In this document: in pieces, positions 15,078 through 33,948 of the stretch | Position numbering within the stretch: the stretch's first letter is position 1 | Layout: each line of letters starts with the position of its first letter | Source: an uncultured Clostridia bacterium | Lineage (GTDB): Bacteria > Bacillota > Clostridia > TANB77 > CAG-508 | Length of the DNA stretch: 44,227 nucleotides | Reading direction: 5' to 3' | NCBI GenBank assembly: GCA_949455995.1 | Contig: CASUIT010000001.1 | Span: forward strand, 1-44,227 | Translations under genes and position numbers: made by a program | Notes under the pieces: generated by a model | Told to the model about the DNA's origin: nothing | What the model saw: the letters and a program-made list of their open reading frames with translations, nothing else | Database searches by the model: none

Positions 15078-15122
15078 TGGTGTACCAGAAAGGACTCGAA
15101 CCTTTTACCTTCGCCTTAGGAG
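15078..15122 (-). pseudogene. 3' half of a split tRNA-Arg(CCT) gene (anticodon loop to CCA); junction of the integrative element
   Basis: The minus strand reads CTCCTAA GGCGA AGGTA AAAGG TTCGAGT CCTTT CTGGTAC A CCA. It has no D-arm or 5' acceptor strand. It matches the 5' half at 33910-33948. Confidence 0.8.
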
Positions 15123-15264
15123 TGGTTGGGTACACCAGTTTCCCATAACTTTAATTTTCCTTATATTATCACTATTTTGCAGTGATGTCAATTATTTGGT
15201 GGAATTTGGTTTTATGGCAAAAAAGAGTAAATAAAGGTATTTAATTGTATGTTATATCCAAATG

Positions 15265-15293
15265 TTGGGGAAAAAATCACTAAAAGTTGGGGG
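15265..15293 (+). repeat. Two direct TTGGGG(A/G)A motifs near the left end of the element (candidate integrase arm sites)
   Basis: GTTGGGGAAAA at 15264-15274 and GTTGGGGGAAT at 15286-15296. The same motif occurs three times at 33788-33818. Confidence 0.45.
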
Positions 15294-15416
15294 AATTATC
15301 AGAATAAAATTCAATAAAATTACTTGTCATATTTTAAAACTTATAAGATAAAAATATATTATTTTTCATTTAATAACATTTTATAAAACTATTTTAGGAA
15401 AAAGTTTTATATAACA

Positions 15417-15466
15417 AAATTTCACTTTTTCACTTATTATATTATTTAAGTGAAAAAGTGAATTTT
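15417..15466. terminator. Long AT-rich hairpin downstream of the serine recombinase gene
   Basis: AAAATTTCACTTTTTCACTT / AAGTGAAAAAGTGAATTTT inverted repeat. A related copy (core AAGTGAAAAAGTG) lies at 27235-27285. Confidence 0.55.
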
Positions 15467-15490
15467 ATTTTAGATAAATTAAATTAATAT

Positions 15491-16231
15491 TTATGCAACC
15501 ATTGTTTCTAATTCTTTTAATTCTGCTTTATATTTATAGTAACTGTTTCTTGAAACACCTGCTAACTTTCTACATTCTATGTCATTTAATGTACCATTGA
15601 ATAACTTACTATGTTTTAAGATTATTTCTTTAGCTTTCTTTTCTTTTTTAGTTGTTAGTTTACTTCCTTTTGATAATCCTACTCTTTTCCCTTCTAATTT
15701 TGCTGTTAGTATTCCCTCGGAAGTTCTTGTATGTATATCTTCTAATTCTTTCTGTGCTTGGTCAAATACTTTCTTTATTTGTTCTTTGGCTAATGCTATT
15801 GTATAATCATTCAATGCTTTTATTACTGTATTTATTAGTTTATCTGTTGCTTCATTTCCAGTTGTTACTTGTAGTTTTATTTGATTATCTAATGCCTTCT
15901 TAAAAACTTCTGTATTTATATGTGGCTCTTTTAGAAATTCTATACTAACATTATGATTAAATAAATCTTCATATAATTGACAACCACCTTCACTATCCCT
16001 AGACATTCTACTTGCACTATCAAAAACTAATTTATATTTCCTATTTACTGTTCCTGCCTTAGCTTCATTTATAACCTTTTGAAAATCTTTATATCCTATA
16101 ACTGTTGCTCCACAATGTGTAATTCTAACAATTCTTGCATTAGGATATTTTGCTAATATATTTCTAACTTGACGCTCAATGTTCTGTTTCCCTGTGCTTT
16201 TTCTTACCACTCCTATAATTATTTCTTCCAT
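15491..16231 (-). CDS. Small serine recombinase (resolvase/invertase family) with C-terminal HTH
   Basis: Start MEEIIIGVVRKSTGKQNIERQ is preceded by AGGAGG. It has a resolvase-type N-terminal catalytic domain (..VFDSASRMSRD..) and a C-terminal HTH (CRKLAGVSRNSYYKYK). Confidence 0.75.
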   Translation of the reverse strand: MEEIIIGVVRKSTGKQNIERQVRNILAKYPNARIVRITHCGATVIGYKDFQKVINEAKAGTVNRKYKLVFDSASRMSRDSEGGCQLYEDLFNHNVSIEFLKEPHINTEVFKKALDNQIKLQVTTGNEATDKLINTVIKALNDYTIALAKEQIKKVFDQAQKELEDIHTRTSEGILTAKLEGKRVGLSKGSKLTTKKEKKAKEIILKHSKLFNGTLNDIECRKLAGVSRNSYYKYKAELKELETMVA

Positions 16232-16257
16232 GATTAAATTCCTCCTACCTCTTATTA

Positions 16258-16363
16258 GTACCAAATCTAACCTTCGTTTCTTTTGGTACAGTTAGCTTAA
16301 CACAGCTCTCCCAAGCTATTCAATAGCTTTTGGTACATTTTTTTAAATCGTTACTTTTGGTAC
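16258..16363. promoter_or_regulatory. res-like cluster of four GTACCAAA/TTTGGTAC motifs upstream of the recombinase gene
   Basis: GTACCAAA (16258-16265), a 16-nt spacer, then TTTGGTAC (16282-16289) form a 32-bp dyad. Further TTTGGTAC copies lie at 16328-16335 and 16356-16363. Confidence 0.45.
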
Positions 16364-16432
16364 TAATTGCATGACTTATAAATAGGTTTAAAGCTATAAT
16401 TATGTATTATAAGAAACTACTTCACAATAAGT

Positions 16433-16469
16433 AAAAATAGTAGGTACATCTCATGTATCTACTATTTTT
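16433..16469 (-). terminator. Hairpin terminator, copy 1 of a 30-nt repeat
   Basis: AAAAATAGTAGGTACATCTCATGTATCTACTATTTTT, downstream of the 16473-16943 gene. Confidence 0.6.
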
Positions 16470-16472
16470 ATT

Positions 16473-31593: not shown

Positions 31594-31696
31594 ACCTCAA
31601 TATATAATTTAGTAATAAAAACAAATAAAATTGAATGAGCTTACTATTAGATGAATACTCTTTTATCCCTCATTCCAGTTTGGAAAGAAGGAGAAA

Positions 31697-31885
31697 ATGG
31701 AAGATAAACCAATTTTAATAACAGTAAAAGAATGTAGTAAATTATTGAATATGGGAGAGAAAATTATTCGTAAATTTACTAAAATGAAAGGATTTCCTGC
31801 AATTATTTTACCTCATAAAATCCTTATAGATAAAAATCAGCTACCAACATGGATTTCAAAGAATTATGGAACTTTTAAGAACTAA
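31697..31885 (+). CDS. xis: Excisionase-family HTH protein
   Basis: ITVKECSKLLNMGEKIIRKFTKMKGFPAI is MerR/HTH_17-like. It lies immediately upstream of int. Confidence 0.7.
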   Translation: MEDKPILITVKECSKLLNMGEKIIRKFTKMKGFPAIILPHKILIDKNQLPTWISKNYGTFKN

Positions 31886-31988
31886 ATTTATGTTATTGAG
31901 TTTTTAAACAATTTGATATAAGCTAGGAAGGAATTTATTTTGGTAATTTTTCCTAGCTTATTTATAAGAATAAGGAGGAAATAATTAA

Positions 31989-33567
31989 ATGGAAAAGATA
32001 AAAGAAAGAACAGAACAATATTCTGTATCTGTTCGTGTTACAAATAATGGATATTTTGAAGCAAGAATATCCATCAAGATAGGTGGTGGTAGAAGTCCAA
32101 GAATACAGAAAGGTGGAAGGACAGAAGAACTGGCAGTATTAAATCTTTTAACTGCATTAGAAAATCATATTGATACTTGTTATAACTCTGGAATAATAAC
32201 TACTAAAATAGATGACTGCATTCCACAAAGGTTAATGAAAAGTATAAATGATTTAGGACTTATAACACCTGAAATTAGCACTATAGCTTTAGCAATATTC
32301 AATAAAATAGCTTTTATTAATTCTAACATTATGAATACTATTGCTATTCCTAATAATGTTATATCATTCTATCCACCACAAAATAATATACCAAATTCAG
32401 TTGCTCCTGTTCCTGCTAATGTTTTTACAACTGCTCCTGCATTAGTACCAACTAATAATTTAATAGTTGAAACACCTAAGGAAAAACAGGAAATATGTGT
32501 TATTGAGGATATTGCTAATGAATGGCATATTTATAGATTATCATTATGTAAAAAGACAGAAGATAACCCTAAACCATTAAGCCAAACAACAGTTGATAAT
32601 AATTATAAAAGACTAAAAAATGATATACTTCCTTTTTTTAAAAAGAACAAAATAATCTATTTATCACAAATAACAGAAGACTGGGTTAAGTCATTACTAA
32701 AAAGCATAAAATGTCAAAACAGCAAACATAAGGCATACATAGCTTTAAATATGTTGTTCAAATATGCAATAAAGAATAAAAAAGCTACAATTAACCCTTT
32801 AGAAAAAATAGATAAACCACCTGAAAAAATTGATACAGGCAATGAGGAAGATGATGACAATTACATTGAACCTGATAGACAAGATATATGGTTAGATAAG
32901 TTTGAATCAGAATATGAAGAAAGCAGACTTCAAGACCAAAAAAGTGATATGTCTATTCTTTTTGAAACAATGCTACTTACAGGAATTAGACCTGAAGAAG
33001 CCTGTGGTCTTAAATGGACTGCACTCGACCTAAAAAACAATGAATTAATCATCAATAATGCTCATAAAGATTTTATCAAATATGATGAAAACGGAGAAGA
33101 AAATGGGCATTATAGAAGTGATGATAAACTAAAAACACCACAGTCTTATCGTAGAATACCTCTTAATCCTAGACTTAGAGAGATTTTACTAAAACATAAG
33201 AAATATCAACAAGAACTATTTAAGAAATCAAGAGCAATAAAAAGTAGAAAATGGAAATGGTCTGAAAATCAATATATGTTTTTAGGGAGAAACTATTATC
33301 CTTATGTTTCTGAAGATTTGGCTTATGGACTTCGTAAATTCCGTAACAAATATAATTTAGAGTATTGTTCTCCATATCGGATTAAGGCATTCTTTTGCTA
33401 CATACTGCTCTGAACATGGTATGGAAGAAATTGTACTTATGAAATTGATGGGACATTCTAACTTTGAAACCACTCAAAAATACTATATTAAAGTTTCTGC
33501 TAAACGAAAGAGATTAGCAATGCAAGAAGCATACAAAGTAGTATTTTATGAAAGAAAAGCAAGTTAA
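31989..33567 (+). CDS. int: Tyrosine site-specific integrase, frame interrupted at an in-frame CGG
   Basis: Core-binding and catalytic domains (..LLTGIRPEEACGLKW..). The break is at CGG 33378-33380. The +1 frame gives SPY-GLRHSFATYCSEHGMEEIVLMKLMGHSNFETTQKYYIKV (HxxR, H and the catalytic Y), with a stop at 33565-33567. Confidence 0.85.
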
Positions 33568-33575
33568 TAATAAAA

Positions 33576-33605
33576 AGAACTTATATAAACCAATATATAA
33601 GTTCT
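33576..33605 (+). terminator. Hairpin terminator after int
   Basis: AGAACTTATATA / TATATAAGTTCT 12-bp stem. Confidence 0.6.
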
Positions 33606-33664
33606 CCTACTATTATAATTTCTCTATCTCCTATCTAGCAAATATGAATAGAAAAATTATATAA

Positions 33665-33741
33665 TGGTGTACCAGAAGGGATTTGAACCCCCGACCTGCA
33701 GTTTAGGAAACTGACGCTCTATCCTACTGAGCTACTGGTAC
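33665..33741 (-). tRNA. Complete tRNA-Arg(CCT) carried inside the element
   Basis: GTACCAG TA GCTC AGTAGGATA GAGC G TCAGT TTCCTAA ACTGC AGGTC GGGGG TTCAAAT CCCTT CTGGTAC A CCA forms a cloverleaf with one T-C mismatch at the top of the anticodon stem. The anticodon is CCT. Confidence 0.85.
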
Positions 33742-33787
33742 ATATCTTATTAAATTGTACTATAAATTAATGGTACTTATTTATTTT

Positions 33788-33818
33788 TTCCCCAATTAAG
33801 TTGGGGAAACTTGGGGAA
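33788..33818. repeat. Three TTGGGGAA motifs (one inverted) near the right end of the element
   Basis: TTCCCCAA at 33788-33795, and TTGGGGAA at 33801-33808 and 33811-33818. Confidence 0.45.
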
Positions 33819-33909
33819 ATGCTAACTTTATATCTATATATTGCTAATGGCTATCCCCTTACATATAACAATACTTTAAGACTTTTCACTCTCCCCCTAA
33901 AGTGCTTGT

Positions 33910-33948
33910 TTAGGAGGGCGACGCTCTATCCTGGTGAGCTACTGGTAC
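33910..33948 (-). pseudogene. 5' half of the split tRNA-Arg(CCT) gene
   Basis: The minus strand reads GTACCAG TA GCTC ACCAGGATA GAGC G TCGCC CTCCTAA and then diverges (ACAAGCAC...). The anticodon stem TCGCC is complementary to GGCGA at 15115-15111. Confidence 0.8.

Follow-up and report, generated by a model that had tools for sequence, protein, structure and literature searches.

An 18.8 kb integrative element that splits a host tRNA-Arg(CCT) gene at the anticodon loop and carries a complete tRNA-Arg(CCT) in an uncultured Clostridia bacterium

The closest described counterpart of the element reported here is 'tRNA-dependent lysogeny' (Guerrero-Bustamante and Hatfull, mBio 2024, PMC10865867), in which a tyrosine integrase acts on an attB site located in a host tRNA gene. 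The common core of such phages measures only 8-17 bp, so that the tRNA is not rebuilt; lysogens are viable only when the phage supplies a tRNA of that isotype. The arrangement was reported to have arisen several times independently in actinobacteriophages (e.g., Fionnbharth, LeBron, Gaia and Mollymur), a wider occurrence was predicted, and Lj965 of Lactobacillus johnsonii was named as a possible Firmicute case (PMC10865867). In the literature on replacement tRNAs in genomic islands, nothing closer than this study was found. The present analysis concerns a 44,227-nucleotide stretch of DNA (hereafter the window), which is the whole of one contig (CASUIT010000001.1; C1) of the metagenome-assembled genome (MAG) of an uncultured Clostridia bacterium (GCA_949455995.1, here G000; 1.58 Mb in 173 contigs, 88% complete, 6.4% contamination). 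An integrated element of 18,787 bp (15123-33909), whose ends are set by two tRNA halves and by the empty sites of two congeners (G138 and G329), separates the halves of the host tRNA-Arg(CCT) gene and carries a complete tRNA-Arg(CCT) gene of its own. It is considered very likely that the element integrated via a core in the anticodon loop, thereby splitting the host gene, and that it compensates for this with its own complete copy.

The element shares with tRNA-dependent lysogeny a tyrosine integrase with (putative) arm-type sites on either side of attP, an attB within a host tRNA gene and a core so short (7 bp here, 8-17 bp there) that no functional tRNA is rebuilt; in both, related integrases have different tRNA targets, each accompanied by a matching cargo tRNA. 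It differs in that the host is a low-GC, uncultured, gut Clostridia-like bacterium and not an actinobacterium, that the core is exactly the anticodon loop, and that one element is found in several hosts with unrelated tRNA bodies. Furthermore, the tRNA of Fionnbharth overlaps the distant gene 37, whereas the cargo tRNA lies within the int-attP cassette in every family member examined here, and the requirement for the tRNA is experimental in PMC10865867, whereas for the present element it is predicted by sequence comparison. No virion genes were recognised in the element, so the term 'lysogeny' is inapplicable.

An anticodon-loop class of tRNA- and tmRNA-integrating elements was reportedly distinguished by Williams in 2002. 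Canonical tRNA islands and prophages (Islander, PMC4383910) likewise employ a tyrosine integrase and a crossover in the anticodon loop, with int located by the tRNA-proximal junction and the displaced fragment at the far end; however, their attP contains the 3' part of the tRNA as a 40-50 bp repeat and the target is regenerated, whereas here the repeat is 7 nt, no tRNA is regenerated and a whole tRNA gene is carried. Lj965 (PMC10865867, PMC3714127) resembles the present element in being a Firmicute element that encodes a cognate tRNA while the target is reportedly not rebuilt at the junction, but it is a full prophage with four tRNA genes, and the two are likened by description only. With phage-inducible chromosomal islands (PICIs) and related satellites the element has in common its small size, an integrase, a repressor-like helix-turn-helix (HTH) protein, a primase-helicase and the lack of recognised virion genes; yet no terS, capsid-remodelling or packaging-hijack gene was recognised among its open reading frames (ORFs), many of which match no family, and its gene order differs from that of PICIs, int being located at the end of the replication operon.

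On the basis of its predicted genes and sites, the element works in the manner of tRNA-dependent lysogeny without being a prophage and represents a non-phage case in gut Clostridia, while a sizeable integrase family is predicted to do likewise at three or four tRNA targets. This would extend tRNA-dependent integration from actinobacteriophages to another phylum and to small non-phage elements, with a whole integrase family involved rather than one odd case. Tools of the Islander/TIGER type, which rely on finding a regenerated tRNA together with a long direct repeat, would overlook such elements or place them wrongly, and tRNA annotation of such genomes will assign to the host tRNAs that belong to an element. 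The int-tRNA-attP cassette, being compact, is also a candidate tool for integrating DNA into gut Clostridia that are genetically intractable.

The split tRNA-Arg(CCT) gene and the cargo tRNA

The orphan 5' half of the host gene (33948-33910, minus strand) reads GTACCAGTAGCTCACCAGGATAGAGCGTCGCC-CTCCTAA and comprises the acceptor 5' strand, the D arm, the 5' strand of the anticodon stem and the loop, while the orphan 3' half (15122-15078, minus strand) reads CTCCTAA-GGCGAAGGTAAAAGGTTCGAGTCCTTTCTGGTACACCA and comprises the loop, the 3' strand of the anticodon stem, the variable loop, the T arm, the acceptor 3' strand and CCA. Both halves had been noted in a preliminary description of this DNA, made from its letters, and were found where it had placed them, letter for letter. 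That description had also claimed that the joined halves form a perfect cloverleaf and had proposed that tRNA prediction be run on them; ARAGORN indeed returned a 77-nt tRNA-Arg(CCT) with a perfect cloverleaf when the halves were joined with a single copy of the loop, with 7/7 acceptor pairs and 5/5 pairs in the anticodon stem (TCGCC/GGCGA). The 7-nt loop reported at both junctions proved to be the exact extent of the common core: the left and right junctions are identical over TTAGGAG on the plus strand (15116-15122 and 33910-33916), corresponding to the loop CTCCTAA, and the adjoining bases differ. The left core has the same position and sequence in a second host (G041), and the right core was also found at six related loci (L013, L014, L067, L068, L073 and L076).

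A core of 7 nt is too short to rebuild a functional tRNA at either junction. The five element-side bases 3' of the loop pair with the orphan anticodon stem at 1/5 positions and ARAGORN called no tRNA at the right junction of the window, in agreement with the claim that the sequence following the 5' half cannot pair. Neither the restoration of the split gene by island sequence nor the long direct repeat of Islander-type islands (PMC4383910) was found, the repeat being only 7 nt, and a 51-nt 'repeat' (D4) reflects the 75% similarity of two different tRNAs rather than a regenerated target. The view that the target is destroyed and not regenerated was therefore only partly upheld: the gene copy is split and no replacement 3' half is supplied, but the loss is not uncompensated, a complete cargo tRNA-Arg(CCT) being present 168 bp inside the right junction.

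The empty site, which was to be sought in related genomes, was found in G138 and G329: at the syntenic position, both possess an intact tRNA-Arg(CCT) gene that has the loop CTCCTAA and shares 92-93% identity with the joined gene. The DNA 5' of the intact gene is colinear with positions 33909-36603 of the window (a Spo0E-like gene, an HTH/ImmA pair and a PP-loop gene), while its 3' half matches 15078-15122 (93% identity between the window and G329) and is followed downstream by tadA (~9250-9750 in the window); the same neighbourhood was observed in G158, G140 and G130. Because of this intact syntenic copy and the shared neighbourhood in congeners, the split gene is identified, by synteny, as the native tRNA-Arg(CCT) of the host at its native locus. 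With the halves at both ends of an integrase-bearing element and the intact gene in G138 and G329, the suggestion that the element crossed over in the anticodon loop is sustained, the tyrosine integrase having recombined its attP with an attB that overlaps the host tRNA gene.

A comparable split was observed in a different genome (G043, contig C20; L032, 3054-3302), where another element is inserted at the same loop, next to a host 5' half 98% identical to that of the window. A different tRNA-Arg(CCT), of 79 nt, is carried 130 bp inside this other element. Nearby are AbiEii, an S51 peptidase and an integrase of which just a fragment is left, so that the element may have decayed, its tRNA perhaps now serving the host.

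The cargo tRNA-Arg(CCT) of the window (33665-33741, minus strand; Rfam tRNA, 66.4 bits) is the sole tRNA called by ARAGORN in the window, is oriented as the split host gene and lies between the tyrosine integrase and the arm-type repeats. It is 78% identical to the split gene, with the same acceptor stem and a different D loop, variable loop, T arm and anticodon stem, the last being CAGTT/AACTG, and it is the only tRNA-Arg(CCT) found in the 88%-complete assembly. AGG accounts for 2.5 of every 1000 codons in the host and for 5.3 of every 1000 in the element. With a complete tRNA-Arg(CCT) supplied by the element itself, the decoding function has very probably been preserved. Two types of native tRNA-Arg(CCT) occur in the genus, with the loop CTCCTAA (C32) or TTCCTAA (U32), and the cargo tRNA, whose loop is TTCCTAA, belongs to the second. 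It is identical over 77/77 positions to the native tRNA-Arg(CCT) of the congener G094 (L040, 1501-1577) and 97% identical to that of G324 (L039, 1468-1544), both of which are located at the native locus beside the PP-loop gene, and this U32 allele does not contain the 7-nt core of the element. The simplest reading of these sequences would be that the cargo tRNA was captured from a U32-type host. For the route by which a whole tRNA came to be placed between int and attP, such a capture and the duplication of a canonical 3' half were both considered. If the retargetable cassette tentatively suggested below is real, a weaker corollary would be that the U32 alleles of G094 and G324 may be host escape variants, with the cargo captured from such a host.

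The left attP arm contains two TTGGGGRAA repeats (15265-15295, plus strand), conserved in G041, and the right arm contains three TTGGGGAAA repeats, one inverted and two direct (33787-33819), between the cargo tRNA and the core; both sets are putative arm-type integrase sites. In the window, TTGGGGRAA was found six times against an expectation of 0.78, and 5/6 occurrences lie at 91-172 bp from the two junctions, on both sides, as would be expected if they were the arm-type sites of an attP with TTAGGAG at its centre. A 62-residue ORF just 5' of int (31697-31885, plus strand) encodes a possible Xis-like excisionase, with a weak match to HTH_17 (E = 0.009, below the Pfam cutoff). A small ORF was also called at this position in relatives, most with an HTH_17 match and most of those matches being marked weak.

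In the proposed mechanism, recombination by the integrase would have taken place between attP and the anticodon loop of the native tRNA-Arg(CCT) gene of the host. The core shared by the two would be no more than the 7-nt CTCCTAA, with TTGGGGAAA-type arm sites on both arms of attP, and the junction of the circular form would read ...AAGTGCTTGT-TTAGGAG-TGGTTGGG... Because attP would contain no tRNA 3' half, the host gene would be left as two orphan halves, for which the complete tRNA-Arg(CCT) between int and attP, oriented like the target, would compensate; the cargo tRNA is presumed to be expressed and needed. Conservative excision would restore the host gene.

Related copies of the element and the integrase family

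A scan of GTDB genomes identified the integrase at 100% (G041) and 95% (G129) identity in two MAGs labelled 'uncultured Clostridium sp.', in which the cargo tRNA, the arm repeats and the core are identical to those of the window. The orphan 5' halves past the core differ, however, being GCATTTATAGCTCAGGTGGATAGAGCGCTCCC in G041 and GTTCTCATAGCTCAGCAGGATAGAGCAGTCGC in G129. The left end of the element in G041 is located on another contig (95% identity over 778 bp), where it abuts CTCCTAA-GGGAGAGGCCGCTGGTTCGAATCCAGCTAGATGCACCA, which pairs with the 5' half of G041 itself; the resulting split tRNA-Arg(CCT) (GCATTTA...CTCCC / CTCCTAA / GGGAG...TAGATGC) is quite unlike that of the window. The corresponding left junction was not found in the 71%-complete MAG G129/G042. 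A fourth tRNA body was found at L068/L069, where the integrase is 82% identical, the 5' half reads GTGTCTATAGCTCAGTTGGATAGAGCGCTCGC and the cargo tRNA is a close variant. The host acceptor 5' strands at the four copies are GTACCAG (window), GCATTTA (G041), GTTCTCA (G129) and GTGTCTA (L068/L069), all cut at the same loop.

No single 3' half would be able to pair with such dissimilar acceptor stems, and the combination of a whole cargo tRNA with a loop-only core removes this constraint. The same element could enter hosts with quite different tRNA-Arg(CCT) bodies because only the anticodon loop must match; a loop-only core would explain the presence of one element in hosts with unrelated tRNA bodies, and the arrangement would pay by freeing the element from any match to the tRNA body and so widen its host range. 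When the right-end module was compared with all 337 genomes of the window's genus, G041 gave no match, and the element is therefore present in at least two GTDB genera.

Approximately 149 clusters match the integrase at E <= 1e-10, from which nine further members (38-86% identity) were examined together with a JGI match (73% identity), the only integrase relative returned by a scan of JGI metagenomes. All loci that reach far enough display the same layout, i.e., int, a complete tRNA, one inverted and two direct arm repeats, ~90 bp, the 7-nt core and an orphan 5' half. In all twelve loci that could be read through to the core (12/12, with integrases 38-100% identical), the cargo tRNA and the orphan half represent the same isoacceptor, so that the matching tRNA which characterises tRNA-dependent lysogeny (PMC10865867) is present both in the window, as tRNA-Arg(CCT), and across three isoacceptors. 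Seven of these loci target tRNA-Arg(CCT) with the core TTAGGAG (the window, L013, L014, L067, L068/69, L073 and L076), one targets tRNA-Arg(TCT) with the core TTAGAAG (L070), and four target tRNA-Lys(CTT) with the core TTAAGAG (L071, L072, L074 and L075). L071 and L072 encode one and the same integrase protein yet are located in two different tRNA-Lys bodies, while at L078 the contig ends within a tRNA with a CAT anticodon. Maximum-likelihood analysis placed the integrase of the Arg-TCT member among the Arg-CCT ones (support 81/82), with the Lys-CTT and CAT members outside. The strict agreement between cargo and target across these loci provides the strongest comparative support for the view that the cargo tRNA replaces what integration is predicted to destroy, and the relatives would have been retargeted to tRNA-Arg(TCT) or tRNA-Lys(CTT) by a joint change of core and cargo tRNA.

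The genes located 5' of the cassette vary, and include a D5 primase-helicase, AAA_25, a rolling-circle Rep, a DNA methylase, a reverse transcriptase and a sigma-like gene; the xis-int-tRNA-attP unit therefore behaves as a module. We tentatively suggest, while regarding the opposite as somewhat more probable, that this unit is a self-contained retargetable cassette common to many otherwise unrelated small elements of gut Clostridia, whose integrases need identity with the 7-nt loop only and which acquire new targets by a swap of core and cargo. If so, one element could enter any host with the isoacceptor, whatever its tRNA body.

'Self-immunity', by which the cargo would be spared through its loop TTCCTAA as against CTCCTAA, was rejected as a general rule, the cargo loop being identical to the core in L067, L073, L076, L070 and the Lys-CTT members. 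At a separate locus (L077, 4064-4140; Logan contig ERR7738626_274532), the integrase is as in L076 and the host junction lies within the cargo tRNA, giving a chimeric tRNA-Arg(CCT) with 6/7 acceptor pairs and a dtd gene directly after it. This may be either a real recombinant, in which the cargo loop was used as the crossover site, or a misassembly at a 40-nt identity.

The integrase reading frame and alternative explanations

The tyrosine integrase gene (31989-33567, plus strand; PF00589, PF13102) would encode 525 residues if read through, while its ORF in translation table 11 ends at 33413. A one-base break, TAT-CGGA-TTA, is located at 33375-33384, 5' of the part that encodes the catalytic LRH...H...Y, where the window reads CCA TAT CGGA TTA AGG CAT and L067 reads TAT GGA CTT AGA CAT. 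When CGGA is read as one glycine, the resulting 525-residue protein contains PYGLRHSFAT...GHSNFETTQKYY. The extra C is common to the copies in G000, G041, G129 and L068/69, and the break therefore predates their separate integrations. Over the 61 sense codons past the break, the window and L068 (82% identical integrases) were shown to differ by 15 synonymous changes and 1 nonsynonymous change in the shifted frame, against 1/15 and 2/15 (synonymous/nonsynonymous) in the other two frames. This pattern argues for purifying selection on the shifted frame, and for recoding rather than decay. Because of the same contrast between frames, we infer that the catalytic part is translated in the shifted frame, and the integrase is likely to be functional and would be active in the proposed mechanism.

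The same one-base CGGA break was found in the AAA+ gene of the element (17904-19422, minus strand), whose Walker A motif reads GNPG(CGGA)TGKT and whose full Pfam AAA domain is seen only after recoding. Both breaks (PY-G-LRH in the integrase and GNP-G-TGKT in the AAA+ protein) consist of an in-frame CGGA where a conserved glycine is expected. A histidine kinase ORF located outside the element also ends early, at AAT CGGA ACG (in the region 14960-15050), and the next frame gives a normal HATPase_c end (...GTIDVKSENEIIEFEIKLKK); this represents the same CGG-N pattern in a host gene.

These reading frames bear on the possibility that the locus is a dead relic, in which a frameshift has turned the integrase into a pseudogene, the split persists as a scar and the host now uses the cargo tRNA as its working gene. 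The table-11 ORF does end short of the region with the catalytic His/Tyr, the AAA+ gene likewise contains a break, and the apparently decayed element of G043 has kept its cargo tRNA with only a shred of integrase. We nevertheless regard a relic as unlikely, given that the break is common to copies in four host tRNA contexts, so that integration came after the break, that differences past it are overwhelmingly synonymous even relative to a copy with an 82% identical integrase, that a host gene displays the same CGG-N pattern, and that G000 and G129, with 88% identity in the int region, show 100% identity in the cargo tRNA and right attP arm. It is very improbable that the contig was misassembled from unrelated DNA at tRNA-like repeats: while the MAG is fragmented and contaminated to the extent given above and the related Logan contig L077 may be chimeric at its 40-nt tRNA identity, a junction repeat of 7 nt is not long enough to mislead an assembler, the right junction was recovered next to different host DNA in independent assemblies of other samples, the left junction was recovered again in G041, and the flanks are syntenic with those of congeners.

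The preliminary description had itself named a competing boundary, based on the shared 3' ends at 15078 and 33665, which would imply that integration was canonical and took place at the 3' end of the complete tRNA (33665-33741), the 13-mer TGGTGTACCAGAA being the att core and the 'halves' unrelated relics. Although this 13-mer occurs exactly twice in the window and the intact tRNA adjoins int as in canonical islands, such an integration is hardly credible, since the halves fit perfectly in both the acceptor (7/7) and anticodon (5/5) stems and the arm repeats are centred on the TTAGGAG core. In G041, moreover, the same element ends abut a 3' half that ends in TGGTGCATCTAGC, without the 13-mer, its partner 5' half lying beyond the cargo tRNA, while the empty sites of G138 and G329 join the sequence at 15122 to 33910 and not 15090 to 33665. 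The 13-mer boundary was rejected on account of these G041 ends and empty sites, and chance is likewise excluded because G041 represents a second, independent split; by sequence comparison, the 13-mer is simply the acceptor stem common to two related tRNAs. That the halves still function as a split tRNA joined in trans, as in Nanoarchaeum, such that the host gene would not really be lost, is exceedingly improbable. Both halves are intact in sequence and a promoter-like site is present 5' of the 5' half; however, the complementarity of their flanks is no better than that of shuffles (-13.3 kcal/mol against a mean of -13.35, with 142/300 shuffles as good), which leaves trans-joining unsupported, and the cargo tRNA makes it unnecessary. 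To our knowledge, there is no bacterial precedent for a split tRNA joined in trans.

Several observations weigh against the interpretation favoured here, i.e., integration through the anticodon loop with compensation by the cargo tRNA. Translation table 11 leaves the integrase without its catalytic tyrosine, and its function would depend on recoding at CGGA. A consensus search found no promoter-like site directly 5' of the cargo tRNA, and neither a promoter-like site nor a terminator between the right junction and the cargo tRNA. Furthermore, the cargo tRNA may be dispensable, since the genome also encodes a tRNA-Arg(TCT) that might decode AGG by wobble and the completeness of the MAG is only 88%, and the cargo loop is identical to the core in most family members, where the cargo would then also be a potential substrate of the integrase.

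The promoter-like site mentioned above (TTTACT-17-TATAAT; 33967-33995, minus strand) is located 5' of the host tRNA start and represents a consensus match only, such matches not being enriched over shuffles in this AT-rich DNA. It is a matter of speculation that this site could also drive the cargo tRNA when the element is integrated. A second match, TTGACA-17-TAATAT (15191-15163, minus strand), would point across attP in the circular form, and expression from it in that form is equally speculative.

Further content of the element and its flanks

Searches of the element ORFs against Pfam and PHROGs recognised no virion, capsid, tail, terminase, portal, lysis, packaging, relaxase, coupling-protein or conjugation gene, and no relative of the integrase was found in IMG/VR. 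The element does not present as a temperate phage in the sense of PMC10865867. Because virion, lysis and conjugation genes were not recognised and the integrase has no IMG/VR relative, it is classed, by predicted gene content, as an integrative element of unknown mobility class (satellite-like or similar to integrative and mobilizable elements) and not as a prophage.

The right part of the element encodes a primase-helicase (28627-30759, plus strand) with CHC2 zinc finger, Toprim, D5_N and DUF5906 domains in Pfam and a match to phrog_864 at 3.7e-98, along with a 255-residue orphan near the 62-residue Xis-like ORF. A repressor-like HTH_3 regulator (27297-27995, minus strand; Pfam, PHROGs) is divergent from this replication/integration operon. 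Approximately 20 ORFs point leftward, including those for DUF4314, a bS6 paralog, DUF3846, DUF6809, two FtsK-gamma-like paralogs, the AAA+ ATPase, a DnaJ_C fragment and a small serine recombinase, the last being a resolvase/invertase-like protein of 257 residues (15491-16264, minus strand; PF00239, phrog_125 DNA invertase). An S-adenosylmethionine (SAM) riboswitch (RF00162, 56.2 bits; 20470-20553, minus strand) is located within the element 5' of the ORF at 19519-20367, a 282-residue orphan without a Pfam or PHROG match. PADLOC returned only a weak AAA+ (IetA-like) similarity among the cargo genes and no recognisable defence system. The ribosomal protein bS6 paralog (24195-24479, minus strand; PF01250, 5.6e-29) is full-length and lies among small orphan genes. 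Two adjacent genes (20615-21259 and 21269-21970, minus strand) are paralogous, with a 106-nt repeat, 74% identical, at each 5' end, and the second contains an FtsK-gamma winged-helix domain.

Outside the element, tadA and the tRNA 3' end are separated by an extra block of 5.2 kb (~9830-15077), whose genes code for two peptidases, one M26-like and one C39-like, and for a response regulator/histidine kinase pair. At the same position, G138, G158, G140, G130 and G329 lack this block; its part from the C39-like peptidase to the histidine kinase is found at other places in G054, G016 and G094, where no tRNA adjoins it. A bacterial small signal recognition particle RNA (8315-8410, minus strand; RF00169, 56.7 bits) represents ordinary host content.

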